A model generated the notes under the pieces. That model did not search any database. It was not told the DNA's origin and saw only the letters and a list, made by a program, of their open reading frames with translations. The translations under genes were made by a program, and so were the position numbers. This document shows positions 11,103 through 33,663 of a DNA stretch of 33,875 nucleotides, piece by piece. This DNA is from a virus. The stretch lies in the UHGV virus genome UHGV-1463555; one strand, 5' to 3'. How positions within the stretch are numbered: the stretch's first letter is position 1; the number at the start of each line of letters is the position of its first letter.

Positions 11103-12575
11103 TCATAATGTGTAGTAAAAGAAAGTAAAAGTGCCGGTTTTACGGTCAAAAACGATCTTTTTCAGGATGCGGCGGAGCGCGTTGCTTTTTTCAACATAAC
11201 TTACATCAGGATCAAGGATAAGGTCATAAACAGTGGAGATCTGGGCCAGTAGCTTTTCTTTACTTTGCTGTGGATTCGGGGCAGAGGGCTGGCCCTGCTG
11301 CAGCTTCTCTAGCTGCGAAAGAATTTCCGCACGTTCTGATTTCAGTCTTACTTTATTATTCTTGTATTCTTCCAGTGTGTCAATTTCGCTTTCATAAGCT
11401 TCTTTTATTCGTCTTTCTTTCACATCCAGCCGGGACAGAGCTTCTTTTAACAAAGCTTCCTCTGTTAGTGTTACAGGATTCTCCGGAGGGATGTACTCAT
11501 AAGTGACATCATGACTTTCCAGGGCAGAGCGCAGGGAGTCCAAAACAGCCCGCTCAGCTATACTTACGGAAACACTGCAGGAATCAGGATGTACCCCTTT
11601 GCTGTACTTCCAGCACTGAAAAAAAGAGGGGCGCCGCTTCTCGTCTTTCGTGCGGTTAAACCCCAAGCTCCCACCACAGACACCACATTTCAGCAATCCA
11701 GACAGCCAATGAGCAGTGGCAGAGGCCTGCTTGCGGTGACGGGGCTGGTATTCGGACTGGATCCGCGCCTGAACAGACTCAAACACAGAAGTTACGGCCG
11801 GAATCGTCTCATGGGTGCCATGAAACGTGATCCCATTCCAAGTCACATCACCAACATAGAACCGGTTAACCAGAATTCTTTGGACACCGCGAAGCTCAAA
11901 GGGACATCCGCGGTTGGTTTTATATCCTTGCAGGTTCAGATCCCTGGCAATGGTCAACATGTCTTTTCCCTGGCTGTACGCCTGGAAGATGTACTCAACG
12001 ATAGGCACCGCATCTGGATCCAGCACAAAAGGCCGGCCGCCGCCCACAGCTTTATATCCAAGGCATGGGACTGCCTGATAGCCGGACCGGAGCGCTTTTT
12101 CGGTCATTCCCCTGAGAACTTCACCAGAAAGATTATAAGAGTAGTATTCATCAAACCATTCTATGATTGTTTCAATCAGTCGGCCAAACATGCCGTCTGC
12201 AATAGGTTCAGATACGCTTTTGATCTCCACGCCGCATTTTTTGCGCAGGATTCCTTTGTAAAATGTGCTTTCTTCCTGGTTGCGGGCAAAACGGGAGAAT
12301 TTCCACAGGTACAGCCGCTTGAAGGGTGAAGGCTTCTGAGACTTGGCAACTGCAATCATTCTCTGAAATTCCGGCCGGTTGTCAGCCTTACGGCCTGAGA
12401 TCCCCTTCTTTTCCTCAAAGATAAATTCCTTTGGAATAATATAACCATCAGCTTTAGCTGTTTCCATAATCACACGGATCTGGGCGTCTGGTGACAATTC
12501 TGCCTGATCATCTGTACTGACTCTGATATAGGCAGCACCGATTTCAAGACTTTTTGGTGTAGGTTTATCTGACAT
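11103..12575 (-). CDS. Large serine recombinase (phage serine integrase).
   Basis: The N-terminal resolvase fold carries the catalytic serine in 'AAYIRVSTDDQ'. A recombinase domain, a Cys-rich zinc ribbon (CGVCGG...CWKYSKGVHPDSC) and a C-terminal coiled coil follow. It is 490 aa and is the only long minus-strand gene. Confidence 0.9.
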   Translation of the reverse strand: MSDKPTPKSLEIGAAYIRVSTDDQAELSPDAQIRVIMETAKADGYIIPKEFIFEEKKGISGRKADNRPEFQRMIAVAKSQKPSPFKRLYLWKFSRFARNQEESTFYKGILRKKCGVEIKSVSEPIADGMFGRLIETIIEWFDEYYSYNLSGEVLRGMTEKALRSGYQAVPCLGYKAVGGGRPFVLDPDAVPIVEYIFQAYSQGKDMLTIARDLNLQGYKTNRGCPFELRGVQRILVNRFYVGDVTWNGITFHGTHETIPAVTSVFESVQARIQSEYQPRHRKQASATAHWLSGLLKCGVCGGSLGFNRTKDEKRRPSFFQCWKYSKGVHPDSCSVSVSIAERAVLDSLRSALESHDVTYEYIPPENPVTLTEEALLKEALSRLDVKERRIKEAYESEIDTLEEYKNNKVRLKSERAEILSQLEKLQQGQPSAPNPQQSKEKLLAQISTVYDLILDPDVSYVEKSNALRRILKKIVFDRKTGTFTFFYYTL

Positions 12576-15650: not shown

Positions 15651-16265
15651 ATGGACATATATGGATACATGAGAGTATCATCGAAAGAACAAAATGAGGA
15701 TAGGCAAAGAATTGCTCTAATGGCAGCAGGAGTGCATGAAAAGAATATCTTTATTGATAAGCAGTCCGGCAAAGATTTTGAGAGGACACAGTATAAGCGG
15801 ATGCTCAGAAAACTTAACGAGGACAGCGTGCTGTACATAAAATCTATTGACAGGCTTGGAAGGAATTATGCAGATCTGAATGAGCAATGGCGTATCATCA
15901 CGAAAGAGAAGAAAGCCGATATTGTGGTAATTGATATGCCTCTGCTGGATACACGCAGGGAGAAGAATCTGCTGGGAACATTCATAAGCGATATTGTTCT
16001 GGCATTGCTCAGTTATGTCGCAGAAAACGAACGGATCAATATCAAGCAAAGGCAGGCAGAGGGAATTGCTGCAGCAAAAGCAAGAGGTGTTATATTTGGC
16101 AGACCGTCATTACCAATCCCGGAGAATTTTGATCAAATGCATAAGGATTGGAGAGCTGGAAAGATCAAGATAGAGTATGCTGCCAGAGCCTGCAATATGT
16201 GTTCCAAGACCTTCTATAGCAAGGCGGTGAAACTTGAAAAGGAGATGAATGTAGATGGATATTGA
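15651..16265 (+). CDS. Small serine recombinase of the resolvase/invertase family (Hin/Gin-like).
   Basis: The 204-aa protein has 'GYMRVSSKEQNEDRQ', matching the catalytic-serine motif of Hin/Gin/resolvases (GYIRVST.DQ). 'DRLGRN' and a C-terminal HTH-like tail are present. Confidence 0.85.
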   Translation: MDIYGYMRVSSKEQNEDRQRIALMAAGVHEKNIFIDKQSGKDFERTQYKRMLRKLNEDSVLYIKSIDRLGRNYADLNEQWRIITKEKKADIVVIDMPLLDTRREKNLLGTFISDIVLALLSYVAENERINIKQRQAEGIAAAKARGVIFGRPSLPIPENFDQMHKDWRAGKIKIEYAARACNMCSKTFYSKAVKLEKEMNVDGY

Positions 16266-17056: not shown

Positions 17057-18094
17057 ATGACAAATGAGAATGTTAAAACACAGGTTATTAATGATGTAAT
17101 CGTTGCCATGTCAGCATATATTGCTGCTGATTTAATCCAAATTCTGGAGCGTGTGATAGTTGACAAGACGATAGATGTGGTTATGGAAAGAATCAATACG
17201 CTACCGGCAGAGATTAAGGATAGTGTGGATCAACAGAATGAGTACATAATTAAACTCTTTTTATATAAGAAGAAAAAGCTTCGTGAAGGGACTAAATATG
17301 GTTATATGGCATCAATCAAACGCCTGATCACGGTGTTGGACAAGCCACTGGTGCAGATGGATGAACATGATATATTTTATTACCTAAATTGGTATGAGAA
17401 CCGGAATGTACCAGTAACCGGACGAAAAAATCAGAACTCAACTTTGAATAGCGAAAGAAGGTATTTGTCCGCTTTCTTTTCCTGGATGCGGAAAGAAAAG
17501 CTTATAACGGTAAATCCAGTTGAAGCAATCGAGCCATTAAAGGTGCAGAGAAAGCCTATAGATTTCTTTACACCGGAAGAAATGGCACGTTTAAGAGACA
17601 GTTGCCGGACCTTACGGGAACGAGCCTTAATTGAAGTACTGCGCAGTACCGGGGCACGCGTAGGAGAAATTGTTGAGATAACTGTTGACCAGATCAACTG
17701 GGAAACAGGGGATATTTTGATTCTAGGTGAAAAAAGTAACCGGTATCGGACCATATATCTGGATCCGGATGCTTTATACCATTACAAAAAATATTGGAAC
17801 TCTAGGACAGACAACAATGAACATATGTTCGTATCGAAGAGCAAGCCTTATAAGCCAATAGGGACATCTTCGGTACGGACAATCATGAAAGAAATTGCGG
17901 AACACGCAGGTGTGACAAACCGGTGTTATCCTCACAAGATGAGGAAGACACTGGGAATGGAGTTGAAAAACAGAGGCGTAGATATAGGAACGATCCAGGA
18001 AGTCCTGGGTCACGCGGATTCTAAAGTAACGAGTATGTACTATGCTCAATCAACACCGGACACGTTGAGGATGATTAGAAAAAGGGCAGTTTAA
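17057..18094 (+). CDS. Tyrosine site-specific recombinase (phage integrase / XerC-D family).
   Basis: The 345-aa protein has an N-terminal SAM-like domain. Catalytic signature residues are present in 'TGARVGEI' (Arg), 'HKMRKT' (His-x-x-Arg), 'VLGHAD' and 'TSMYYAQ' (Tyr). Confidence 0.85.
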   Translation: MTNENVKTQVINDVIVAMSAYIAADLIQILERVIVDKTIDVVMERINTLPAEIKDSVDQQNEYIIKLFLYKKKKLREGTKYGYMASIKRLITVLDKPLVQMDEHDIFYYLNWYENRNVPVTGRKNQNSTLNSERRYLSAFFSWMRKEKLITVNPVEAIEPLKVQRKPIDFFTPEEMARLRDSCRTLRERALIEVLRSTGARVGEIVEITVDQINWETGDILILGEKSNRYRTIYLDPDALYHYKKYWNSRTDNNEHMFVSKSKPYKPIGTSSVRTIMKEIAEHAGVTNRCYPHKMRKTLGMELKNRGVDIGTIQEVLGHADSKVTSMYYAQSTPDTLRMIRKRAV

Positions 18095-19816: not shown

Positions 19817-20356
19817 ATGGCGGAAAAGAAGCGAAAAGCAGCAGGCCGCCAGAAATGGCGGGAATGGGCAGAAAGTGAAGAGCATCAGGCGGTTCTGTCA
19901 GCTTGGGCAAGAGCCGGAATGACAGATGAAGAAATAGCAAAGCAGATAGGGATAAGCAGATCCACGCTGGCGGAATGGAAAAAGAAATATGCACCAATTA
20001 ATGCGGCGCTGGCAACCGGGAAAGACTTTGCGGATCGTCTGATCGAGAACAGTTTGTACAAAAAGGCCATTGGCTTTTATGCAAGTGAGCAAAAGGCTTT
20101 TAAAGTTAAGACTGTAGAATATGACGAAGCAACAGGAAGAAAGATAAAAGAGTTTGAAGAATTAAAGACGGCGGAAGAGGTCCACTATTTTGAACCGGAT
20201 ATAAAAGCAATCATATTCTGGCTGAAGAACCGTAAACCGGATATCTGGAAAGAAAAAGTTGCAGAGGCTATGGCAGATGATGAGGGAACTGGTGTTATTG
20301 TTTTGACGCCAACCCAGGTGGAGCAGATCAGCAAGGAAGTAAAAAAGGATGAGTAA
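19817..20356 (+). CDS. terS: Terminase small subunit.
   Basis: The 179-aa protein has an N-terminal HTH ('MTDEEIAKQIGISRSTLAEWKKKY'). It lies immediately upstream of, and overlaps, the large terminase gene. SD ggtggtgatATG. Confidence 0.65.
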   Translation: MAEKKRKAAGRQKWREWAESEEHQAVLSAWARAGMTDEEIAKQIGISRSTLAEWKKKYAPINAALATGKDFADRLIENSLYKKAIGFYASEQKAFKVKTVEYDEATGRKIKEFEELKTAEEVHYFEPDIKAIIFWLKNRKPDIWKEKVAEAMADDEGTGVIVLTPTQVEQISKEVKKDE

Positions 20357-21797
20357 CCAAAGAATTGTATGGGCACCGCAGCCCCGGCAGGAAATAATGA
20401 TGTCACGTCCAGAATTTGAGGCTTTATACGGTGGAGCTGCTGGCGGTGGAAAGAGTGATTATTTAGTGGCAGAGGCACTGAGACAAGTCCAAATCCCACA
20501 GTATCGCGCAATCATTTTCAGAAAGACTTACCCTGAGCTGGAAGACATCATAAGCCGCAGCCATGAGCTTTACGGCTCAGCTTTCCCAAGAGCTAAATAC
20601 AACGAAAGTAAGCATGCCTGGAGGTTTCCATCTGGTGCAATGATCTATTTCGGGCAAATGCAGCACACGAAGGACAAGCTTAAATACCAGGGCCGACATT
20701 TTGATTTTGTGGGATTTGATGAACTGACGCATTTTGCGAAAGAAGAGTATATGTATCTCTTTTCCCGTGTCAGATCATCAGCACCTGGATTAAGAACATA
20801 TATCAGGAGTACGGCGAACCCAGGCGGTCCAGGACATCCGTGGGTGAAAGCACGATTTGTGAGCATAGCGAAGCCGGAGACTAAGATAGTGCAGGAAGTG
20901 AATATCACTAAACCATCCGGTGAGGTGATAAAGCGTACCAGAGACAGGATATTTATCCCTAGCTCGGTGTTTGACAATAAAGCTTTGCTGGACAACAACC
21001 CGGAGTATATCGCATCACTGGCTATGCTGCCAGAAGCAGAAAGAAATGCGCTTTTGTATGGTGATTGGGATTCGTTCAGCGGACAGGTGTTCTCAGAATG
21101 GGAAAATGACCCGTCAAATTATGAAAGCCGAGAATGGACCCATGTTATTGAGCCGTTTAAGATACCGGAAGGATGGCTGATCGGAAGAAGCTACGATTTT
21201 GGATATACTAAACCGTTCTCGGTTGGCTGGTATGCTGTTGATTATAGTGGATGTGTGTATCGGATCCGTGAGCTGTACGGTTGCAAAGAGGGACAGGCAA
21301 ATGTAGGACTGGAAGTGGATCCCGCAGAGCAGGCGCGGATGATCCGGGAAGTAGAAGAGACTGATCCAAACCTTAAGGGAAGAAAAATAGCAGGCATAGC
21401 AGATCCATCAATCTTTGATGTGAGCAGAGGCAATTCTATAGCGGACATCATGGCCCGAAATGGAGTGTATTGGAGCCCAGGCGATAATCATCGAATTGCC
21501 GGGAAAATGCAATATCATTACAGACTGGCATTTAATGCAGATGGACATCCGCTATTTTACGTTTTTAACACATGTAAGGGATTTATAAGGACGATCCCAC
21601 AGCTGGTATATGATGAAAAGAACGTAGAAGATATTGACACTACACAGGAAGATCATATTTATGATGAGTGCAGATATTTCCTGATGCAGTACCAGATCGC
21701 AAAGCGTGCGAATGTAAAGAAAAAACCGCCGCTGGATGATCCTTTGGATCTGTATAAGGCAGAACGTGAAAAAGCATATAAAATCATTAGGATTTAG
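20349..21797 (+). CDS. terL: Terminase large subunit (ATPase plus nuclease).
   Basis: Walker A 'GGAAGGGKSD' and Walker B 'FDFVGFDELTHF' are present. The C-terminal half is acidic and nuclease-like. The protein is 482 aa. The gene order terS-terL-portal supports the call. Confidence 0.85.
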   Translation: MSNQRIVWAPQPRQEIMMSRPEFEALYGGAAGGGKSDYLVAEALRQVQIPQYRAIIFRKTYPELEDIISRSHELYGSAFPRAKYNESKHAWRFPSGAMIYFGQMQHTKDKLKYQGRHFDFVGFDELTHFAKEEYMYLFSRVRSSAPGLRTYIRSTANPGGPGHPWVKARFVSIAKPETKIVQEVNITKPSGEVIKRTRDRIFIPSSVFDNKALLDNNPEYIASLAMLPEAERNALLYGDWDSFSGQVFSEWENDPSNYESREWTHVIEPFKIPEGWLIGRSYDFGYTKPFSVGWYAVDYSGCVYRIRELYGCKEGQANVGLEVDPAEQARMIREVEETDPNLKGRKIAGIADPSIFDVSRGNSIADIMARNGVYWSPGDNHRIAGKMQYHYRLAFNADGHPLFYVFNTCKGFIRTIPQLVYDEKNVEDIDTTQEDHIYDECRYFLMQYQIAKRANVKKKPPLDDPLDLYKAEREKAYKIIRI

Positions 21798-21805
21798 GAG
21801 CGAAA

Positions 21806-23686
21806 ATGGACGAAGAACTTGTAAAAAAGAAAATTGGTAAAAAAGAAGTAGATGATGCTTATGCCAGGTTGCAGAAGTATAAAGAGGGAAAAGCAGCATT
21901 AGAAACAAGAATTGTAGGTGCAGAGGAATGGTGGAAGAATAACCACTGGCAGCGCTTTAACAGTGAATTTCGCAACGCAAATGATCCCCAGCCGGTGAGC
22001 GCATGGCTTTTTAACAGCCTGATTAATAAACATGCGGATTTTATGGACAATTACCCATGCCCGGCTATTCTTCCCAGAGAACGGTCAGATGAGGATACGG
22101 CGAAAATCCTTTCTCAGGTGGTGCCGGTTATACTGGATCAGAATAATTTTGAGCAAGTATACAATGACTGCTCTTGGGATAAGCCCAAAACTGGGACAGC
22201 CATTTACGGGGTCTTTTGGAACAAAGAAAAAGAAAACGGCTTAGGAGACGTTGATGTAAAATGCCAGGATATCATGAATATCTACTGGGAGCCTGGTATA
22301 AAGGACATACAGCGATCAAAGGATGTGTTTACAACAGAACTTATGGACCTGGATGAGCTAAAAGAAGCATATCCAGAACTCGAAGATAAAACAGTAGGCA
22401 CAGGCGAACTGATAAAGTCAGAGTATATCTATGATGAGAACATCGATACAAGCAACAAGGTGCAGGTCATTGACTGGTACTACAAAAAAAGAATACTGCT
22501 TGCAACTGGCGGAGTTAAGACGGTGCTGCACTACTGCAAATTTATTCCGGGAATTGTGTTGTATGCATCTGAGGATGATGAAACATGCACCAATGGATGG
22601 TATGAGCATGGGAAATATCCGTTTGTATTTGATGTAATGTTCCCGGAAAAAGGATCGCCGGCAGGATTTGGATACCTGGATGTAATGGTAAATCCCCAGG
22701 AATATATAGACAAGCTGGATTCGGTGATACTCAAGTCTGCAAATTTGAGCAAACCGAGATATTTTGTATCGTCAGGATCAAATGTAAATGCAGAGGATTT
22801 TGCTGATTTAAGCAAAGATTTGGTGGAAGTATCTGGAACAATGGACGAAACCAAAATTAAGCAGATCCAGCCGCCACAGCTTCCGGAATATGTTATCAAC
22901 ATGCGAACAATCAAAGTGGATGAGCTGAAAGAAACAAGCGGAAACCGGGATTTTTCTCAGGGATCCACAGCATCGGGAGTAACTGCGGCTTCAGCTATCG
23001 CAGCATTGCAGGAAGCAGGAAGTAAACTGAGCCGGGATATGATCAAAACAAGCTACACCGCACATGCAGAGGTTGTGACACTGATTATTGAGCTTATCAG
23101 GCAGTTTTATGATCTGCCTCGTTGCTATCGGATCACTCAGCCGAATGGTGATGCACAGTATGTGATGATGGATAAGAGCGAATTACAGGAACAGACAGCA
23201 ACAATGATGGACGGGGAAATATTGACTAGAAGACCAGTGTTTGATGTCAAAATATCAGCACAGAAGGCAAGCCCGTATAGCAGGATCGCAAACAACGAAC
23301 TGGCAAAAGAACTCTTTGGTATGGGACTGTTTAATCCTCAGATTGCGGATCAGGCCCTTGCGGTAGTATCTATGATGGATTTTGATCGTAGAGAAGAAGT
23401 GATTAAAAAGATATCAGAGAATGGCACCATGTATCAGGAGATCCAGCAGTTGCAGCAGATATTAGCGCAGCTTGCACCGATGGTTGCTGAAATGACTAAC
23501 CGTCCGGATCTGGTACAGGCTATTGATGGATTGATCGGAAATAACCAGATGGCTATGACTGATGTGAATGTGAACCAAGGGAATAGCATAAAGACAAATT
23601 CTTTAGGACAGGCAGTGAATACAGATACCAGTCAGGCAGGAAAGGCCAGGGAAAAGGCAGCTACAGCAACGGAGGTAAACCAGTGA
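21806..23686 (+). CDS. Portal protein (by position and size).
   Basis: The 626-aa protein directly follows terL and precedes the head protease and scaffold. It has an acidic, Q-rich C-terminus. No family-specific motif could be named with confidence. Confidence 0.6.
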   Translation: MDEELVKKKIGKKEVDDAYARLQKYKEGKAALETRIVGAEEWWKNNHWQRFNSEFRNANDPQPVSAWLFNSLINKHADFMDNYPCPAILPRERSDEDTAKILSQVVPVILDQNNFEQVYNDCSWDKPKTGTAIYGVFWNKEKENGLGDVDVKCQDIMNIYWEPGIKDIQRSKDVFTTELMDLDELKEAYPELEDKTVGTGELIKSEYIYDENIDTSNKVQVIDWYYKKRILLATGGVKTVLHYCKFIPGIVLYASEDDETCTNGWYEHGKYPFVFDVMFPEKGSPAGFGYLDVMVNPQEYIDKLDSVILKSANLSKPRYFVSSGSNVNAEDFADLSKDLVEVSGTMDETKIKQIQPPQLPEYVINMRTIKVDELKETSGNRDFSQGSTASGVTAASAIAALQEAGSKLSRDMIKTSYTAHAEVVTLIIELIRQFYDLPRCYRITQPNGDAQYVMMDKSELQEQTATMMDGEILTRRPVFDVKISAQKASPYSRIANNELAKELFGMGLFNPQIADQALAVVSMMDFDRREEVIKKISENGTMYQEIQQLQQILAQLAPMVAEMTNRPDLVQAIDGLIGNNQMAMTDVNVNQGNSIKTNSLGQAVNTDTSQAGKAREKAATATEVNQ

Positions 23687-24048
23687 CAGAAATAACATTT
23701 GAAAACGTGCCAGGATACTTTCGCTTAAAGGTGGAAGGCCATGCCGGATATGGATGCGCTATGGGACTTCCGGAAGGGCATGACATCGTGTGCGCTGCGG
23801 TATCTGCCATTGGACAGACGGCAGCACAGTGTATGATCGACCTAGGAGAAGAAAAAGCAGTAGTGATTCAGGACTTGCAGATCAAAGATGGATTGATAGA
23901 TATTCGCGTTTTGGTCAAGAAAAAAGCACAGAAGCGCCTGAATGCAATGGTTTATACCATACAGAGAGGGTATGAAACATTAAGCAAATCTCACCCGGAA
24001 TTTGTCCATATGAACGTAAAGTCTGGGGTGGTAGAGAAGAAAAAATGA
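23683..24048 (+). CDS. Prp-like cysteine protease (ribosomal-processing protease YsxB/DUF464 family), the putative head-maturation protease.
   Basis: 'EGHAGYGCAMGLPEGHDIVCAAVSAIGQTA' matches the Prp signature 'GHAG...G.DIVCAAVS' with the catalytic His and Cys. The protein is 121 aa. The gene lies between portal and scaffold. Confidence 0.75.
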   Translation: MTEITFENVPGYFRLKVEGHAGYGCAMGLPEGHDIVCAAVSAIGQTAAQCMIDLGEEKAVVIQDLQIKDGLIDIRVLVKKKAQKRLNAMVYTIQRGYETLSKSHPEFVHMNVKSGVVEKKK

Positions 24049-24130
24049 ATGTGATACCATGAAATACAGAACGCGCGGGAAAGACCGCTGAATTTTAAGA
24101 CACGCAGGAAAGACTGCTGAGAGGAGCAAA

Positions 24131-24997
24131 ATGAAGAGAATCATCGAAATGAACTTAAGACTTTTTGAAGGTGAAGGTGGTGGAACCGGTGCGGCAGCAC
24201 CAGCAGCAGATCAAACGGGAGAAAATGTCCAGAACACCACTGGAAGCACTGGGGCAGAGGAAGGCCAGGAACAGGAAGAAACACCGGAAGAGCGGCAGGC
24301 AGGTTATGAAAAATTCAAGGAAAAGTATCGTGATCTGTATGGTAAAGACGTAAAAAGCCATATTGACCGAAGATTTAAGGATGAGCAGCGGCTGCATGAA
24401 CAGCTCAATTCATATGCGCCTTTGATGTCGTTGCTATCCGAAAGATACGGTATCGAAGACGGAAATGTAGCAAAGATCATGGAAGCCATCGACAATGATG
24501 ACTCTTTCTGGGAAGAGCAGGCTCTTAAAGAAAACATGACTGTTGATCAGCTGAAAAGAATGAGAAAGACAGAGGCTCAGAATAGACAGTTGGTTGAAAG
24601 CGCCCAGAGAGCGCAGCAGATCAGGCAGAGGGATGATATCTATGCCAGATGGGACCGAGAGGCTGAGCTTTGTAAGCAGCATTTCCCAGAATTTGATATG
24701 GCAAAAGAATGTGAGAATGAGGCTTTTACCAGGCTGTTGGGAGCCGGAGTAGAAGTCGAAAACGCCTATAAAGCAGTTCATTTCAACGAGATCACACAAG
24801 GGTTAATGGCCCAGACAGAGAGAGATACAAAGAAAAAAGTTGCGGATTCAATCCGATCTGGCAATGGCAGACCGTCCGAAAATGGTGTGGGTGCCGGTAG
24901 CGCAAATGGAACGAAAGTGAGTGCATGGGATTTATCACATGAAGAGTTCCGCAAAGTCATGGAGCGCGCAGCCAGAGGGGAGACCATTACGATGTAG
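24131..24997 (+). CDS. Scaffolding protein with a cleavable N-terminal leader.
   Basis: The N-terminus is 'MKRIIEMNLRLFEGEGGG' (an L27-like Prp cleavage motif). The protein is acidic and helical and lies between the protease and the capsid gene. Confidence 0.6.
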   Translation: MKRIIEMNLRLFEGEGGGTGAAAPAADQTGENVQNTTGSTGAEEGQEQEETPEERQAGYEKFKEKYRDLYGKDVKSHIDRRFKDEQRLHEQLNSYAPLMSLLSERYGIEDGNVAKIMEAIDNDDSFWEEQALKENMTVDQLKRMRKTEAQNRQLVESAQRAQQIRQRDDIYARWDREAELCKQHFPEFDMAKECENEAFTRLLGAGVEVENAYKAVHFNEITQGLMAQTERDTKKKVADSIRSGNGRPSENGVGAGSANGTKVSAWDLSHEEFRKVMERAARGETITM

Positions 24998-25009
24998 AAA
25001 GGAAAAAGC

Positions 25010-26020
25010 ATGAAAAAGACTATTATTTACATGAATCTTAGATTATTTGACGCACCGGCGAATACAACTACAGCATCAGGCATGTCTGTAGAAATGAAGA
25101 CATTTTATGATCGCAATCTGATCGAGAATGCAGAACCGGAACTTGTACATGATCAGTGGGCACAGACAAGAAACATTCCAAAGAATGGTGGTAAGACCAT
25201 TGAGTTCCGTAAGTATGATCAGCTGCCGAAAGCAATGACACCATTGACCGAAGGTGTAACACCGACCGGTAAAGCTATGAACGTTACCAAGATCGAGGCA
25301 ACGGTAAAGCAGTATGGTGATTTCATCGAACTATCTGATTTACTGATCTTAACAGCAATCGACAATAACATTGTTGAAGCAACCACCTTAATTGGATCTC
25401 AGGCAGGTAGAACCCTGGATACAATCTCAAGAGAAGTCCTGGCAGCCGGAACTAATGTACAGTATGCAGAGGGACAGGTAACTTCCAGAGCGGCCTTAAC
25501 CTCTGAGATGAAACTGACAGTTAAGGCTGTTAAAAAAGCAGTTCGATTCCTTAAAAAGCAGAATGCAAAGAAAATCAACGGATATTATTACGGTATTGTA
25601 CATCCAGACTGCTCCTACGATCTTACAGAAGATGAGCGCTGGATTGATGCGGTTAAGTACAAAAACCCAGAAAGAATTTATAACGGAGAGATTGGAGAAA
25701 TCGAGGGCGCTAGATTTGTTGAAACCACAGAAGCTAAAATCTGGGCTAAGGCCGGAGCGGCAAAGAGCACATCTGATGCCACAAAAATTGATGTATATGC
25801 AACTCTGATCTTCGGTGCAAATGCATATGCGACTACAAAAATTGAGGGCGGCGGCTTACAGACAATTATTAAACAGCTTGGTAGTGCTGGAACTGGTGAT
25901 CCACTGGATCAGAGGGCTACTGTGGGCTGGAAGGCGCTCAAAGTAACTGAAATCTTAACAGAGGCTTATATGATTCGTATTGAGACAGCATCTACATTTA
26001 GCGATGGAGAAGCGAACTAA
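25010..26020 (+). CDS. Major capsid protein (HK97-like) with a cleavable N-terminal leader.
   Basis: The N-terminus is 'MKKTIIYMNLRLFDAPAN', repeating the NLRLF motif of the scaffold. The protein is 336 aa. The composition and the position after the scaffold are typical of an HK97-fold MCP. Confidence 0.7.
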   Translation: MKKTIIYMNLRLFDAPANTTTASGMSVEMKTFYDRNLIENAEPELVHDQWAQTRNIPKNGGKTIEFRKYDQLPKAMTPLTEGVTPTGKAMNVTKIEATVKQYGDFIELSDLLILTAIDNNIVEATTLIGSQAGRTLDTISREVLAAGTNVQYAEGQVTSRAALTSEMKLTVKAVKKAVRFLKKQNAKKINGYYYGIVHPDCSYDLTEDERWIDAVKYKNPERIYNGEIGEIEGARFVETTEAKIWAKAGAAKSTSDATKIDVYATLIFGANAYATTKIEGGGLQTIIKQLGSAGTGDPLDQRATVGWKALKVTEILTEAYMIRIETASTFSDGEAN

Positions 26021-26356: not shown

Positions 26357-27814
26357 ATGATAACTGTACGGGGAAGAGAATTGGTGATCCCGGTAGCAGA
26401 AAGACAGATAGGGACACAGTTCGATAACAATTCAGAAACCAGACAGTTTAAGATCAACCGCCTCACTGTAGGCGGTATTGACATATCTAACCTGGATTTT
26501 CGTATTGATCTGAGATACGGAAAGGAAACTAAGGATACTGACGTACTTGAAAAAGAAATAACAGATGAGCATGTGATATTGACATGGACCGTGAGTGCTG
26601 CAAGTGTACAGCAGATAGGCACGGTATGGATCGCTCTTCGTGGATCTGATGATTTTGGAACCATAAAGTGGGCAACGAATCAGGGGTTTTTGTATGTTGG
26701 AAAGACTATAAACACGCCAGATGGTGCACAAATGGCGCTTTCTGAACTGGAAAAACTGGAAAAACGGATTGACCAGAAGACTGAATCAATGGATGCTGCG
26801 GAAAGCAGCAGGGTGGAAGCAGAAAAGATCCGCCAGGAAAATGAATCAGCCAGGCTGAAAAATGAAGCAGAGTGGCAGAAGCAGGGTGAAGCTGCGGTAG
26901 AAGCGGCTAAGACAGCGACCGCAGCGAAGAGTGCAGCCAGTGCTAGTGCAGAGGCAGCGGCCGAAAGTGCTGGAACAGCTGGTAGCGCAGCGCAGACAGC
27001 AACAGAAGCTGCCAGTGCAGCCAGTGCCAGTGCAGAGGCGGCATCTGGAAGCGCAGAAACAGCCAGTAGTGCGGCACAGACAGCGACCGCAGCGAAGAGT
27101 GCAGCCAGTGCCAGTGCAGAGGCGGCATCCGGAAGTGCTGGAACAGCCAGTAGTGCGGCACAGACAGCGACCGCAGCCCAAAGTGCAGCCAGCACCAGTG
27201 CAGAGGCGGCAGCTGGAAGCGCAGAGACAGCTAGTAGTGCAGCTCAGACAGCTACCCAAAAAGCATCAGAGGCTAGTAGCAGTGCATCCGCAGCAGCATC
27301 AGATGCAAATGAAGTGAAAGAGCTGATACAGGGATTGGGCGGATTTAACGGAAAAGCATCGTCTGTATCAGCTGTGGATTCTTTAGGATTATTAGGTACG
27401 GAAAATGCGACAAGTACGGTCCAGGCGTTGATCGATGTGATAGCGGATAAGGTGCTAAATCAGCTGTTATCAAGAAGTAATGTGGTAAACAATGCATTAA
27501 CCACGGAAGAAGGCTATGCACTGGATGCACGTATGGGAAAGTCCTTGCAGGATCAGATCACCGCTCAAAATAGTAATATTGAGAAGGTAAAAATAAAGAA
27601 GATGTCGTTTACCGCTACTGTTGATCAATGGTCACAGATACAGTTAGTCCCTCAAGAAAAAATGATACTATTTGCGATTTCACCCAATTGGTTATTGATT
27701 CATCAGGGGGCAGGCTCATTTAGGGTATTCGGAAATCTTAGTTCTAAACAACTAAACATAATCTCAAGTGGGACTGTAGTAAACGGAACACTTTTTTATC
27801 TTGATTCAGATTGA
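26357..27814 (+). CDS. Tail fibre or receptor-binding protein with A/S/T-rich 27-aa tandem repeats. Its last ~80 aa form a switchable C-terminal cassette.
   Basis: The N-terminal domain is followed by four to five copies of 'KSAASASAEAASGSA(E/G)TASSAAQTATAA'. Then comes 'NNALTTEEGYALDARMGKSLQDQI', a motif common in Gram-positive phage fibres. The junction repeat (QNSNI) is at 27569..27577. Confidence 0.7.
   Translation: MITVRGRELVIPVAERQIGTQFDNNSETRQFKINRLTVGGIDISNLDFRIDLRYGKETKDTDVLEKEITDEHVILTWTVSAASVQQIGTVWIALRGSDDFGTIKWATNQGFLYVGKTINTPDGAQMALSELEKLEKRIDQKTESMDAAESSRVEAEKIRQENESARLKNEAEWQKQGEAAVEAAKTATAAKSAASASAEAAAESAGTAGSAAQTATEAASAASASAEAASGSAETASSAAQTATAAKSAASASAEAASGSAGTASSAAQTATAAQSAASTSAEAAAGSAETASSAAQTATQKASEASSSASAAASDANEVKELIQGLGGFNGKASSVSAVDSLGLLGTENATSTVQALIDVIADKVLNQLLSRSNVVNNALTTEEGYALDARMGKSLQDQITAQNSNIEKVKIKKMSFTATVDQWSQIQLVPQEKMILFAISPNWLLIHQGAGSFRVFGNLSSKQLNIISSGTVVNGTLFYLDSD
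26905..27250 (+). repeat. An ~81-bp tandem coding repeat (about 4 copies) in the fibre gene.
   Basis: Repeated block aagagtgcagccagtgccagtgcagaggcggcatcYggaagYgc...agtagtgcggcacagacagcgaccgcagc. It produces the spurious overlapping ORFs at 26680..27317 on both strands. Confidence 0.75.
27569..27577 (+). repeat. Junction repeat copy 3 (aatagtaat, in-frame N-S-N; a degenerate 9 of 13 match) inside the fibre gene.
   Basis: caaaatagtaatatt against tgcaatagtaattta. It lies in the same codon phase as the other three copies. Confidence 0.6.
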
Positions 27815-29521: not shown

Positions 29522-29968
29522 ATGAAGTTGGAAAGATTTAAAGCAATATTTATCACTATAATGAGTGCAGCATTTGCCTATCTTGGAGTATTGGCAGTAC
29601 CGGTGTTTGCTCTCGTAGCACTGAATTTTACTGATTATATAACCGGAATAGTTGCATCGAAGTATCGTCAGGAACATGTGACAAGCTACAAGGGGATTCG
29701 AGGCATTTGTAAAAAAATCGGAATGTGGATCCTGATCGGTGTAGGATGGCTCATGGATAGGATGATCATATATGCAGGACAATATATAGGGTTGGACATA
29801 AAAATACCGTTTGTGATTGCTACCGTAGTAGCTGTTTGGCTTATTTGCAATGAGATCATATCCATCCTAGAGAATTTACTTGATATTGGTGTTGCTATGC
29901 CTCCGTTCCTGATGCCGCTTGCAAAAGCAATTAAAGGTCAGGTCGAAGACAAAACAAAATTGGAGTGA
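29522..29968 (+). CDS. Holin (multi-TM phage_holin_4 / LL-H-like).
   Basis: The 148-aa protein has three or four hydrophobic spans (AAFAYLGVLAVPVFALVAL, IGMWILIGVGWLM and VIATVVAVWLICNEII) and a charged C-terminus. It lies immediately upstream of the endolysin. Confidence 0.75.
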   Translation: MKLERFKAIFITIMSAAFAYLGVLAVPVFALVALNFTDYITGIVASKYRQEHVTSYKGIRGICKKIGMWILIGVGWLMDRMIIYAGQYIGLDIKIPFVIATVVAVWLICNEIISILENLLDIGVAMPPFLMPLAKAIKGQVEDKTKLE

Positions 29969-30018: not shown

Positions 30019-30762
30019 ATGAAAATTTCAGAGAATGGTTTGAAACTGATAAGAAGCTTTGAAGGATGCAGATTAGAAGCTTATAAGTGCCCGGCAGGAG
30101 TATGGACCATTGGTTGGGGACACACAGGAAATGTAAAAGCAGGTCAGAGGATTACACAGGCAGAGGCAGATAGGATGTTGACGGATGATATGGGACCATA
30201 TGAGCGCAATGTAGACAAATATGGAACGAAATACATGTGGAATCAAAATGAATTTGATGCCCTGGTATCATTTGCATACAATGTAGGATCTATAGATCAG
30301 TTGACAGCAAAAGGAACCAGATCGCGGGCTGAGATATCAGAAAAGATCCTGGCATATAACCGCGGTGGTGGTAAGATTTTGGCTGGCCTGACCAGAAGAA
30401 GACAGGCAGAACAGAAGCTATTTTTAACTCCAATAAGCGAACAAAAGAAAAAAGGATGGCAGCAAGAGGATGGAGATTGGAAGTATTACCTCGGAAGCGG
30501 GGAGCCTGTAAGAAATGACTGGTATTGGTACGATGATAAATGGTACTGGTTTGATGGTGCAGGAAGAATGGTCAAGAATACCTGGTATAAATACAAAGAT
30601 AAATGGTATTACCTTGGCGCGGATGGAGCTATGCTGACCGGTCAGCAAACCATTGATGGGAAATGGTACGTGCTGAATGAAGATGGAGCTATGGTTACAG
30701 ACCCGGTAACTTTAACCCCTGACCAGGATGGAGCGCTTACCTGGCCGGGACTGAAAGAGTAG
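30019..30762 (+). CDS. Endolysin. An N-terminal GH24 (T4-type) lysozyme is fused to C-terminal cell-wall-binding (choline-binding-type) repeats.
   Basis: 'LIRSFEGCRLEAYKCPAGVWTIGWGHT' matches the GH24 catalytic motif (E...TIGYGHT). The C-terminus carries repeated 'WYYLGADGAMLTGQQTIDGKWYVLNEDGAMV' and 'WYWYDDKWYWFDGAGRMV' units. Confidence 0.9.
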   Translation: MKISENGLKLIRSFEGCRLEAYKCPAGVWTIGWGHTGNVKAGQRITQAEADRMLTDDMGPYERNVDKYGTKYMWNQNEFDALVSFAYNVGSIDQLTAKGTRSRAEISEKILAYNRGGGKILAGLTRRRQAEQKLFLTPISEQKKKGWQQEDGDWKYYLGSGEPVRNDWYWYDDKWYWFDGAGRMVKNTWYKYKDKWYYLGADGAMLTGQQTIDGKWYVLNEDGAMVTDPVTLTPDQDGALTWPGLKE

Positions 30763-31154: not shown

Positions 31155-32723
31155 ATGGGACGATTACCAATGCTGACAATGACACCGAGAGGGGACAGCA
31201 AACAGATAGGATCCTTTGGGGGACTGAACCAAGGTCTTGTAATTGGAGAAAATGAGTTTTCGGACATGAAAAACATGTCTTCAGATGTTTTCCCGGCGAT
31301 AGCGGTCAGAAAGCCAAGAGGAGAAATCCTGAAAAGTTTATCAAAACCTCATGGGATAATTTATAAAAATGGTTTGGCCTATGTGGATGGGACAAAGCTG
31401 TATTACAAAGATAAAGAAATTGCAACAGTCCAGGATACAGACAAGCAGCTGGTGAGTTTGGGAGCCTATATTGTGGTATTCCCGGATAAAATTATGTATA
31501 ACACATCCACTGGAGAAAAGACAGCATTAGAGGCTTCCTGGAGCCAGGCTGCAACAGCAACATTTGCACAGACGACAACCGGAAGTACCATGGTAAAGAT
31601 TAGTTGTACCGGAATCGGAAAGCAATTTAATCAGTTTGACGGTGTGGAAATATCCGGTTGTACAAACAGTAGCTTTAACAAGACTACGGTGATTCAGGAA
31701 AAAGCAGATGACTACATTGTGATCATAGGTGATCTATCATCCAGCTTTACTCAGGAATCTGGGCTAAAGCTTACCAGAAAAGTACCGGATATGGATTATA
31801 TTTGTGAGAATGGCAACCGCTTGTGGGGTTGCTCCAGCGCAAATCATGAGGTATATGCAAGCAAGCTGGGAGATCCAACAAACTGGAATGCGTTTGAAGG
31901 GATCAGTACAGATTCGTATGCGGCTACAGTTGGATCAGATGGAGATTTTACAGGCTGCCTGTCTCATATGGGATATGTGCTGTTTTTCAAGGAAGATACG
32001 ATCCATAAGGTTTATGGAGATAAACCAAGTAATTTTCAGATCAATACATCATTCCCGGTCAGAGGTGTTGCAAAAGGGTGTGAGAAGACAGCATGTGTTG
32101 TAAATGAAACATTATTGTATGTGTCCAGGAGCAATGTATGCAGTTTTGACGGAGCGTATCCGGAATCTGTATCGGATGCACTGGCAGAGGTACGGTTTCA
32201 GGGCGGTGTGGCTGGTCAGCATAACGGAAAATACTATGCATCGTTACAGGATGTATCAGGGCAGTGGAATATCTATGTGTATGATTTAAAAAAGGGTATG
32301 TGGCACAAAGAAGATGATATGCAGGCTTTGTTTATGGCATACGGTGAAGGACAGCTATACTGTGTTGATTCCACAGGAAAACTTTTTACAATCAGCGGTT
32401 CAAGGGATGAGCAGATAGAGTGGATGCTAGAGAGCGGAGACCAGTTGGATGGAAGTGTGGAGTATAAGTTCTTAAAAAGACTGCTTTTTAACTTGAAACT
32501 GGATCCTGGAAGTGAAGTGGACGTATTTATAAAATGTGACAGTGAACCAGAGTTTGAAAAGAAAATTTCTTTTACTTCTCAGGGATATAGAACGCAGGTG
32601 CTTAATATAACCCCAGCCAGATGCCAGAGATACCGGTTCCGCCTGGAAGGGAAAGGACCGGCTGTTCTGATTGCCATGAGTAAATATATAGGATATGGGA
32701 GTGATATTCATGGCAGTATTTAA
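31155..32723 (+). CDS. Large structural protein (tail/adaptor candidate).
   Basis: The 522-aa protein has SD aaggaggagctttaATG. It overlaps the downstream fibre gene by 29 nt. No motif could be named. Confidence 0.5.
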   Translation: MGRLPMLTMTPRGDSKQIGSFGGLNQGLVIGENEFSDMKNMSSDVFPAIAVRKPRGEILKSLSKPHGIIYKNGLAYVDGTKLYYKDKEIATVQDTDKQLVSLGAYIVVFPDKIMYNTSTGEKTALEASWSQAATATFAQTTTGSTMVKISCTGIGKQFNQFDGVEISGCTNSSFNKTTVIQEKADDYIVIIGDLSSSFTQESGLKLTRKVPDMDYICENGNRLWGCSSANHEVYASKLGDPTNWNAFEGISTDSYAATVGSDGDFTGCLSHMGYVLFFKEDTIHKVYGDKPSNFQINTSFPVRGVAKGCEKTACVVNETLLYVSRSNVCSFDGAYPESVSDALAEVRFQGGVAGQHNGKYYASLQDVSGQWNIYVYDLKKGMWHKEDDMQALFMAYGEGQLYCVDSTGKLFTISGSRDEQIEWMLESGDQLDGSVEYKFLKRLLFNLKLDPGSEVDVFIKCDSEPEFEKKISFTSQGYRTQVLNITPARCQRYRFRLEGKGPAVLIAMSKYIGYGSDIHGSI

Positions 32724-33663
32724 ACCCATGATCATCCAGAAAAATGAAACTGACATAGGAAAAGTTGTACGGCAGTTATACCGGTTTAGTGAGGATCTCA
32801 AATATACGATTTCAAATTTGAGCCTGGAAGATAACATTTCAAATGATGTTTTAAATTCTATTACGGATAGAAACAACAAAGTAAGAAAAATCCAGTTTTC
32901 AACGGATGCGCTGAACATTGAATATGATGATTATGCCTCATCTGTACAAACTAAGTTATCCCAGTCTTCTGCAAGTATTCAGTTGTTGGTAGCAACAGGA
33001 AACGTTGTTAATGAAATGCTTACCAGAATGGAGATGTATGGGGAATATATCCGACTAACTAGCGGACACCTGATTATCGATGCCCAAAATATGAAGTTAG
33101 ATAAGCCTGGAAATGCATATTTTTCTGGAAATATAACGGGTGGATCTATCAATATCAACAATCGTTTTGCAGTATCTCCTTCCGGAGATGTGTACATAGA
33201 TGATGCACTGACTACAACTACCTTAAATCCTGCTAAAGCTATCGTGGCTGCTAATATGGAAATTTACAATGATAATGATTATATCAACGTGATCGGAAAA
33301 ACAGCTACATGCAGCGAACTTTATGTATCTGAAAATCTGACCTGCCGGAAGGTGCGGTATACATCAGACAAAAGGAAAAAACAATGCATTAAAGATATTG
33401 AGAAAGTGGATTTTGCTGAACTGATACCGGTATCGTATTCTTTTCGAGATTCAGGCAATAGGGCGATAGGATATATTGCACAGGACATCTATCTGACACA
33501 GGAGAATGGAGAAAATGCTTTAGGGGTAAATCGGTCGGGTAAATATTTAGAACTGCCGTATGTGGCTTACAGCGCTTTGTATGCAAAAGGAATACAGGAG
33601 AATCAGAAAAGAATAAACAAATTAAAAGAGCAGATCAAGAAGGTGAGAGATGTCAAGCTTTAA
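32695..33663 (+). CDS. Tail fibre protein with a C-terminal S74-type intramolecular chaperone domain.
   Basis: The 322-aa protein contains 'GNITGGSININNRFAVSPSGDV' and 'SDKRKKQCIKDIEKV...IGYIAQDIY'. It is paralogous to the gene that wraps around the window ends. Confidence 0.7.
   Translation: MGVIFMAVFKPMIIQKNETDIGKVVRQLYRFSEDLKYTISNLSLEDNISNDVLNSITDRNNKVRKIQFSTDALNIEYDDYASSVQTKLSQSSASIQLLVATGNVVNEMLTRMEMYGEYIRLTSGHLIIDAQNMKLDKPGNAYFSGNITGGSININNRFAVSPSGDVYIDDALTTTTLNPAKAIVAANMEIYNDNDYINVIGKTATCSELYVSENLTCRKVRYTSDKRKKQCIKDIEKVDFAELIPVSYSFRDSGNRAIGYIAQDIYLTQENGENALGVNRSGKYLELPYVAYSALYAKGIQENQKRINKLKEQIKKVRDVKL

Follow-up and report, generated by a model that had tools for sequence, protein, structure and literature searches.

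We analyzed a 33,875-nucleotide stretch of a viral genome (UHGV virus genome UHGV-1463555; the whole stretch is called the window below) and found that its head genes include a 121-amino-acid (aa) open reading frame (ORF; 23683-24048, + strand) of the Prp family of cysteine proteases, followed by the genes for a putative scaffolding protein and the major capsid protein, both of which begin with a leader ending in M-N-L-R-L-F. Bacterial Prp cuts after a Phe in the N-terminal extension of the precursor of ribosomal protein L27 (pre-L27), whereas the presumed substrates of the window ORF are head proteins. A preliminary description of the window had stated that the scaffold and capsid proteins of Staphylococcus phage 80alpha are also cut by Prp, and the literature agrees: 80alpha scaffold (gp46) and capsid (gp47) are cut by the host enzyme after an L27-like leader (PMC5744158, PMC9405229). 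Based on the family membership, fold and intact dyad of the ORF, the leader common to both head proteins, and the phylogenetic co-occurrence and co-variation of protease and leaders, we consider it likely that this phage Prp trims its own scaffold and capsid proteins at the shared leader, as a protease-and-tag pair.

The 121-aa ORF matched the Pfam profile PF04327 (Peptidase_Prp) over profile positions 1-89 of 90 with an E-value of 1.2e-14 and 54.8 bits against a gathering cutoff of 27, and its homologues in public collections likewise match PF04327. The signature GHAGYG...GHDIVCAAVSA is present in the translation. Matches of the ORF among PDB sequences include Streptococcus mutans SMU.848 and Staphylococcus aureus Prp, and the alignment (4peo, 7kld, 2g0i) places His20 (codon 23740-23742), Asp34 and Cys37 (codon 23791-23793) on H22, D31 and C34 of S. 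aureus Prp, with the structural Asp, the equivalent of D31, inside the conserved GHD(I/V)VC segment. The AlphaFold2 (AF2) model of the ORF (predicted local distance difference test, 85.8; predicted template modeling score, 0.79) has a beta-beta-alpha-beta-beta-alpha-beta fold, with strands at residues 2-9, 12-18, 60-68, 71-78 and 108-113 and helices at 33-56 and 80-103, and its sole low-confidence stretch falls between the catalytic residues, where the crystal structures have a mobile loop. When the model was compared with the PDB by Foldseek, ranks 1-14 were all Prp structures (2g0i/j, 7jvs, 7kld, 2idl, 1s12 and 4peo), each with a probability of 1.00 and template modeling scores of 0.60-0.78. 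Compared with S. aureus Prp, 5 residues are inserted in the loop that separates the catalytic His from the catalytic Cys. Both catalytic residues are invariant in 45/45 distinct homologues from related phage loci, many of them below 30% identity and the lowest at about 25%. The preliminary description had called the ORF Prp-like and proposed aligning it to the family and modeling the dyad; both bear the assignment out. We conclude that the ORF belongs to the Prp family of cysteine proteases and has kept the His/Cys dyad, and we predict that it is proteolytically active.

It had also been proposed that the element lacks a conventional prohead protease, and this holds for the window and its closest relatives. 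Pfam scans of 28 ORFs of the window detected no HK97-type S78/U35, ClpP/S49 or T4 gp21-type S77 prohead protease, and the precomputed Pfam annotation of near-identical contigs of 36-37 kb lists no conventional prohead protease either. The sole "peptidase" matches among the other ORFs of the window are Peptidase_S74 tail-fibre chaperone domains.

The two genes that follow the protease gene encode the candidate substrates. The scaffold protein starts with MKRIIEMNLRLFEGEGG and the capsid protein with MKKTIIYMNLRLFDAPAN. For the former we predict a 12-residue leader, MKRIIEMNLRLF (24131-24166, +), that would be cut at F12|E13 ahead of EGEGG, based on the position of the motif, its conservation in homologues and the analogy with L27 and 80alpha; for the latter we predict a 13-residue leader, MKKTIIYMNLRLF (25010-25048, +), that would be cut at F13|D14 ahead of DAPAN. 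The F|A cleavage of L27 and of the 80alpha proteins provides the analogy for both sites (PMC5744158, PMC9405229). M-N-L-R-L-F occupies residues 7-12 of the scaffold and 8-13 of the capsid protein, and NLRLF(E/D) accordingly lies at 8-13 and 9-14, one residue further along than first described. Across all six reading frames of the 33,875 bases, the pattern NLRLF[DE] is found at exactly two sites, the N-termini of these two proteins, with 0.0 occurrences expected from 100 shuffles, and a relaxed motif gave no site beyond these two in the same translation. The scaffold and capsid proteins are therefore the sole candidate substrates in the window. An internal methionine (M7 or M8) was considered as the start of either protein and rejected: M1 was kept, given Shine-Dalgarno-like sequences before the upstream ATGs and upstream extensions of variable length in homologues.

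Both leaders have the form known from 80alpha, hydrophobic-(N/D)-L-x-(L/F/H/M)-F at the end of a short N-terminal extension. They depart from the canonical L27 consensus, (D/N)LQ(F/L)F|A(S/H), by an Arg at P3 and a Glu or Asp at P1', and an L27-like regular expression had no match in the window. Lachnospiraceae L27 starts with MLNMNLQFF'AHKK or MMKMNLQFF'AHKK (PMC9405229); measured against these published N-termini, which were used in place of the L27 of the actual host, the window leaders have Arg at P3, Leu at P2 and Asp or Glu at P1' of M-N-L-Q-F-F|A. Thus, of the earlier claim of matching L27-type leaders, the part that stands is an L27-like leader common to both genes, and the match to L27 itself breaks down at P3, where Arg replaces Gln, and at P1', where Asp or Glu replaces Ala.

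Related loci, viewed within +/-6 kb of the capsid gene, show which parts of the leader are conserved. Prp-carrying relatives keep the motif on capsid and scaffold, or on the capsid protein only (L116, L121, L122, L147, L160, L163, L166 and others, all Prp-positive, with scaffold-position proteins that start without a leader). The residues upstream of the motif vary freely in length and sequence, whereas the motif itself is conserved. Leu occupies P4 in 62/68 motifs from capsid proteins and 52/53 from scaffold proteins, figures that are partly built in because the search pattern restricted the residues at P4 and P2; it also demanded Phe at P1, so that the constancy of P1 is not independent evidence. 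Small or acidic residues are conserved at P1', as at a scissile site. The conserved capsid core lies downstream of the leader: the alignment to the capsid family model TIGR04387 begins at residue 20, and in leaderless relatives (Bacillus phage Pony, Paenibacillus phage API480 and locus L158) the capsid protein starts within a few residues of the predicted cut.

The protease gene and the leaders occur together. A search with the capsid protein returned 80 viral contigs (61-100% identical) and 80 bacterial ones (47-98%). With an iterated profile, a Prp homologue was found between portal and scaffold in 75/75 viral loci with enough upstream DNA; single-sequence phmmer missed the protease where capsid identity fell below about 66%, and the iterated profile recovered all of these. 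We pooled all loci with an intact head module and collapsed them at 90% capsid identity into 62 clusters, treated as independent. Prp and a capsid leader were present together in 52/62 clusters, the leader being canonical (QxFA) in 19 and diverged in 33, and no cluster had Prp without a leader. Among clusters lacking Prp, seven had a canonical leader (N(L/I)Q(L/H)FA), none had a diverged leader, and three had no leader. Motifs that stray from the L27 consensus were thus confined to Prp-carrying lineages (33 versus 0). The three clusters with neither Prp nor leader are Pony, API480 and L158, and the first two, in which both the gene and the leaders are missing, are natural negative controls. 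In the seven leader-bearing clusters without Prp the scaffold and capsid genes directly follow portal or terminase. Loci of this kind (L126, L128, L135, L140, L141, L144, L161, L162, L165) have strictly canonical leaders (FNLQHFA|A, FNLQLFA|D/E); by analogy with 80alpha they presumably depend on host Prp, which, if true, would extend the 80alpha mechanism to phages of Clostridia. This one capsid family therefore spans three states: absence of the system, dependence on the host as in 80alpha, and self-sufficiency.

Within the self-sufficient state, the length of the His-to-Cys loop of the protease co-varies with the P3 and P1' residues of the substrates. With a His-to-Cys spacing of 12, as in S. 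aureus Prp, P3 is Gln in 32/41 motifs and P1' is Ala in 24/41. At a spacing of 13, P3 is Arg in all 16 and P1' is Asp or Glu in 15/16; at 17, the spacing of the window's clade, the figures are 23/28 for Arg at P3 and 26/28 for Asp or Glu at P1'; and at 8, Gln is absent from P3 (0/36) and Asp is at P1' in 32/36. Both substrates of a phage shift together, as in L030, with DLHMFD on both, and L033, with NLRMF on both. In S. aureus Prp this same loop recognizes the P3 Gln, through Gly29 and Asp31, and there is a tight size limit at P1' (PMC9405229). In the long-loop clade, Arg occupies P3 on nearly all substrates where the enzyme keeps the Glu of an L-P-E-G segment, and Thr, Asn or Gly is found at P3 on one substrate where that position is Ala or Gln; we treat this association as a lead, not a result. 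The co-occurrence and co-variation together support the earlier proposal that the element brings a protease and two cognate substrates, with cleavage as the predicted step between them.

We propose the following scheme. The phage Prp, probably a dimer like its bacterial relatives, would recognize M-N-L-R-L-F on newly made scaffold and capsid proteins and, through His20 and Cys37, cut after Phe12 and Phe13 to leave mature proteins beginning EGEGG and DAPAN. Cutting would take place during procapsid assembly or maturation, with Prp as the head-maturation protease in place of an HK97- or ClpP-type enzyme. The leader tags mimic the N-terminal extension of Lachnospiraceae L27, and possession of an enzyme of its own would free the tag to drift from the host L27 sequence, a drift that in the window's clade accompanies the 5-residue loop insertion. 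Head maturation may in this way be insulated from ribosome biogenesis, and the protease-tag pair is probably at least partly insulated from the host Prp/L27 system. The leader may also have a role in assembly, because in 80alpha cleavage is dispensable and the scaffold leader is essential.

A further-reaching form of this scheme is one that we advance tentatively, as possible rather than probable. Here protease and tag would be an orthogonal pair: the loop insertion would retune Prp to M-N-L-R-L-F|(D/E), the host Prp could not process the head proteins, and the phage enzyme would spare pre-L27, with the Glu (Glu31) of the conserved L-P-E-G segment, which is part of the insertion, perhaps contacting the P3 Arg. 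Phage Prps would then be a distinct, widespread and undescribed class of head-maturation enzyme in Firmicute phages, whose sites diversify only once dependence on the host ends, and they would offer a natural library of small co-evolved protease/6-residue-tag pairs.

Several points weigh against trimming by the phage enzyme. We infer cleavage itself, its exact site and timing, the enzyme responsible and its independence from host Prp. The ORF scored far below the cutoff of each of ten NCBIfam Prp equivalog models (best NF011133, 37.4 versus 171 bits). From these scores and the position of the gene, outside the rplU (L21)-prp-rpmA (L27) context and between the portal and scaffold/capsid genes of a phage head module, we take the ORF to be a paralogue of the L27-processing Prp and not an orthologue of the ribosomal enzyme. 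Fisher tests on the clusters gave p = 0.003 for Prp versus leader presence and p = 0.002 for canonical versus diverged leaders, values that ignore shared ancestry, and in some "Prp-minus" loci a Prp gene may lie more than 6 kb from the capsid gene. The close relatives L090 and L093 combine a canonical NLQLFA capsid leader with an NLRLFE scaffold leader, so that the long-loop enzyme, or the host enzyme, must handle both. Charge complementarity, in which the basic window Prp (isoelectric point (pI) 8.4) would pair with acidic P1'/P2' residues, was rejected as not borne out across the family: Prps with acidic-P1' substrates have a median pI of 5.3 versus 6.9 and are thus not more basic. Loci L131-L134 have non-canonical leaders and no Prp nearby, yet their whole head module is missing.

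These four loci were set aside as counter-examples, being uninformative about the head module. They are contigs of Clostridia metagenome-assembled genomes with capsid genes at about 6001, 6001, 4412 and 3768 and leaders DLRAFDG and NLQAFG/A; no portal, terminase, scaffold or Prp gene was found within 6 kb of the capsid gene, the genes upstream are host-like, and L110 is similar. In L132-L134 conserved ORFs of 118 aa and about 510 aa follow the capsid homologue. They look like orphan or domesticated capsid modules, or satellites.

The strongest alternative is that the host Prp does the cutting, as in 80alpha, with the phage copy being superfluous, adding capacity in late infection, or serving host L27 or the making of ribosomes instead of head proteins. 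The host is a Firmicute with a Prp of its own, which could contribute; Clostridia hosts encode both Prp and a long L27 (PMC9405229). Relatives without a phage Prp keep their leaders, presumably relying on the host enzyme, 19 Prp-carrying lineages keep the QxFA motif in fully canonical form, plausibly a site for host Prp, and L090 and L093 mix canonical and diverged sites. Set against this, the window sites have Arg at P3 and Asp or Glu at P1', whereas structural work on Prp points to a critical P3 Gln and a size-limited P1', and even the Prp of Clostridioides difficile is unable to cut an S. aureus L27 peptide (PMC9405229, PMC9261936). Diverged motifs are confined to lineages with a phage Prp, the loop of the protease changes along with the leaders of the phage and not with a fixed L27, and the gene occupies the slot of a prohead protease, with signs of coupling to the portal gene. 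We therefore regard cutting by the host enzyme as unlikely.

A second alternative is that the leaders are assembly or folding signals that are bound and not necessarily removed, the Prp homologue being mainly a chaperone or assembly factor whose cleavage is incidental. In 80alpha, cleavage of both proteins is dispensable, in that phage remain viable when capsid and scaffold cannot be cut; the one requirement is an intact leader on the scaffold, which makes no capsids without it (PMC5744158). By analogy, the primary role of the window leader may be in assembly rather than cleavage, and it has been suggested that Prp acts as a chaperone for L27 (PMC9261936). Invariance of His and Cys across very divergent phage Prps, however, speaks for selection on catalysis, P1 Phe (itself required by the motif search) and a small or acidic P1' are conserved like a scissile site, and leaderless relatives start at the predicted mature N-terminus, so that we find this alternative quite improbable. 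A third idea, in which the shared hexapeptide arose by chance or was left over from a duplication and the Prp-like ORF is an unrelated passenger, has only the shortness of the motif in its favor. It is effectively refuted by two N-terminal occurrences where none were expected, by the presence of the motif on two unrelated proteins in lineages with as little as 47% capsid identity, and in phages whose head genes are unrelated, and by its strict co-occurrence with the protease gene. Trimming by the phage enzyme thus remains our preferred reading.

The protease gene is part of a head module of colinear genes on the + strand, in the order small terminase, large terminase, portal, Prp-like ORF, 288-aa ORF and capsid. 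The module begins with the small terminase subunit (19817-20356; phrog_309, 2.4e-39; helix-turn-helix domains), followed by the large terminase subunit (20349-21797; Pfam Terminase_6N, 2.6e-16; phrog_979, 6.4e-61) and a P22-like portal protein (21806-23686; Pfam P22_portal, 2.1e-31; phrog_156, 3.4e-83). The GTG start of the Prp-like ORF (phrog_4478, "peptidase") overlaps the portal stop (GTGA) and is preceded by GGAGG 9 nucleotides upstream; this arrangement suggests that the ORF is probably translationally coupled to the portal gene. The 288-aa ORF (24131-24997) had no match in Pfam, NCBIfam or the PDB and a match to phrog_13908 (function unknown, 1.1e-77). It is acidic (pI 5.1), and a single-sequence AF2 model of low confidence contains only helices, with long ones after a disordered N-terminal region rich in Gly, Ala and Glu; position, acidity and architecture make it a putative scaffolding protein. 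The major capsid protein (25010-26020, 336 aa) belongs to the N4-gp56 family (NCBIfam TIGR04387, 1.3e-99 and 333.6 bits versus a cutoff of 60; phrog_1357, 2.2e-97; Pfam Phage_capsid_4 and Phage_capsid_3).

The bacterial contigs with capsid matches are essentially all from Clostridia (Lachnospiraceae, Oscillospiraceae, Butyricicoccus and others), and a 98%-identical prophage is present in the isolate Clostridium sp. AM22-11AC (NZ_QUCM01000013). The element carries integrase genes, and we take the window to be the greater part of a podovirus-like temperate phage that infects gut Clostridia. Its roughly 34 kb encode three recombinases: two serine recombinases, one large and one small of the resolvase type, and a tyrosine integrase, in the ORFs at 11103-12575 (-), 15651-16265 (+) and 17057-18094 (+). 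An endolysin with a phage lysozyme domain and choline-binding repeats (30019-30762, +) adjoins a holin (29522-29968, +), which implies that the cell-wall polymers of the host are decorated with choline. Each end of the window encodes a tail-fibre-like protein (27-716 and 32695-33663, both +), both with intramolecular chaperone domains of the Peptidase_S74 type, as fits a circularly permuted, nearly complete phage genome. A 2688-aa ORF (2173-10239, +) has a very strong match to phrog_22978 (function unknown, profile length 3513), no Pfam or NCBIfam match and no Prp-type motif; in a phage whose capsid is of the N4-gp56 type, this could be a giant protein packaged into the virion. Downstream of the capsid gene, ORF 26357-27814 (+) encodes a 485-aa protein whose long repeats are rich in Ala and Ser (…AAKSAASASAEAA…); it may decorate the head or be a fibre protein, and its length range of 471 to 499 aa across otherwise near-identical contigs suggests expansion and contraction of the repeats.

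The protease-plus-leaders scheme is not peculiar to the window, as cultured Enterococcus, Lactococcus, Oenococcus and Dorea phages share the module. A tblastn search with the window Prp gave no match at E <= 1e-3 in 50,697 deposited phage genomes, and the cultured examples surfaced only with the canonical-type phage Prps of related loci as queries. A Prp homologue directly follows the portal gene in Enterococcus phage phiFL3A (gp45), Lactococcus phages TP712 (orf36) and PLgT-1, Oenococcus phages phi9805, phiS13 and phiS11, two Latilactobacillus phages and Dorea phage DO134P1. In the four loci viewed (phiFL3A, TP712, phi9805 and DO134P1) scaffold and capsid carry near-canonical L27 leaders, such as LLNLQFFA|E and MNLQIFA|A in phiFL3A and FNLQRFA|E and FNLQRFS|G in TP712. 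The Prp genes of these phages are labelled "peptidase", "ribosomal protein" or "unknown". In DO134P1 (locus L172, OP172779) the Prp homologue is an unannotated ORF (…ISGHANYAACGQDIICAGV…) between genes 00011 and 00010, at about 4460-4760 in locus coordinates, and the two genes after it start with MANLQLFA|EGDG and MHDIRKLGLQVFT|APDG. A full-text literature search returned no phage-encoded Prp paired with cognate leaders, within a corpus that did not include the primary Prp papers (Wall et al. 2015, 2017), so that an earlier mention of DUF464 genes in phage morphogenesis clusters, there or in the Wall thesis, is possible. Trimming of phage head proteins by Prp is, to our knowledge, established for 80alpha alone, and there the enzyme is the host's.

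About 150 relatives in one capsid family form a graded series, from no leader and no protease, through an L27-identical leader without protease and a leader with phage protease, to a diverged leader with a remodelled loop. Should cleavage be confirmed, a class of small cysteine proteases (about 110 aa) would be added to the head-maturation proteases of tailed phages, and the series would be a natural data set on what determines the specificity of Prp, an enzyme being pursued as a target for narrow-spectrum antibiotics. It would also bear on why Firmicute L27 has a cleavable extension and how that extension relates to phages, and the compact co-evolved protease/tag pairs might serve as orthogonal processing tools. 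The database annotation of these genes ("ribosomal protein", "peptidase", "unknown" or uncalled) would be corrected.

Compared with known head-maturation systems, the window ORF sits in the slot that HK97-type (S78/U35) and ClpP/S49-type proteases occupy, between portal and scaffold/capsid genes, and has the same presumed trimming role. HK97- and ClpP-type proteases usually remove long delta domains or digest the scaffold inside the procapsid. They differ from the window ORF in having an unrelated fold and a catalytic Ser in place of Cys, and only 12-13 residues are predicted to be removed in the window. The maturation protease of Streptococcus phage Cp-1, the only other member of MEROPS clan CR (PMC9405229, PMC9261936), is, like the window ORF, a phage-encoded cysteine protease of the same clan that removes a capsid N-terminal extension; compared by description, it belongs to another family, and its leader of about 40 residues is not L27-like. 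With bacterial Prp (YsxB, DUF464, MEROPS C108) the ORF shares Pfam family, fold, His/Cys dyad and the GHD(I/V)VC segment, and it differs in lying outside rplU-prp-rpmA and below the equivalog cutoffs, with 5 extra residues in the His-to-Cys loop.

The closest parallels are the cultured siphophages and 80alpha. The siphophages resemble the window in having a Prp homologue after the portal gene and leaders on scaffold and capsid; unlike the window, they have SPP1-type portals, a Mu-F-like minor head protein, unrelated capsid proteins, Gln at P3, Ala or Ser at P1', and a loop of S. aureus-like length. In 80alpha, as in the window, scaffold and capsid both bear an L27-mimic leader ending in hydrophobic-N-L-x-x-F, and a protease of HK97 or ClpP type is absent; in 80alpha the cut after Phe is made by a Cys protease of the Prp family, and in the window such a cut is predicted. 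The 80alpha protease, however, is the host's and the motifs are NLQFF|A and NLQHF|A, whereas in the window the protease gene is the phage's and lies between portal and scaffold, P3 is Arg and P1' is Asp or Glu, and the capsid is of the N4-gp56 type, a different family. The logic of Prp and L27 mimicry was thus known, and what appears to be new, judging from sequence, is a phage-borne enzyme with a diverged recognition site and a diverged active-site loop.

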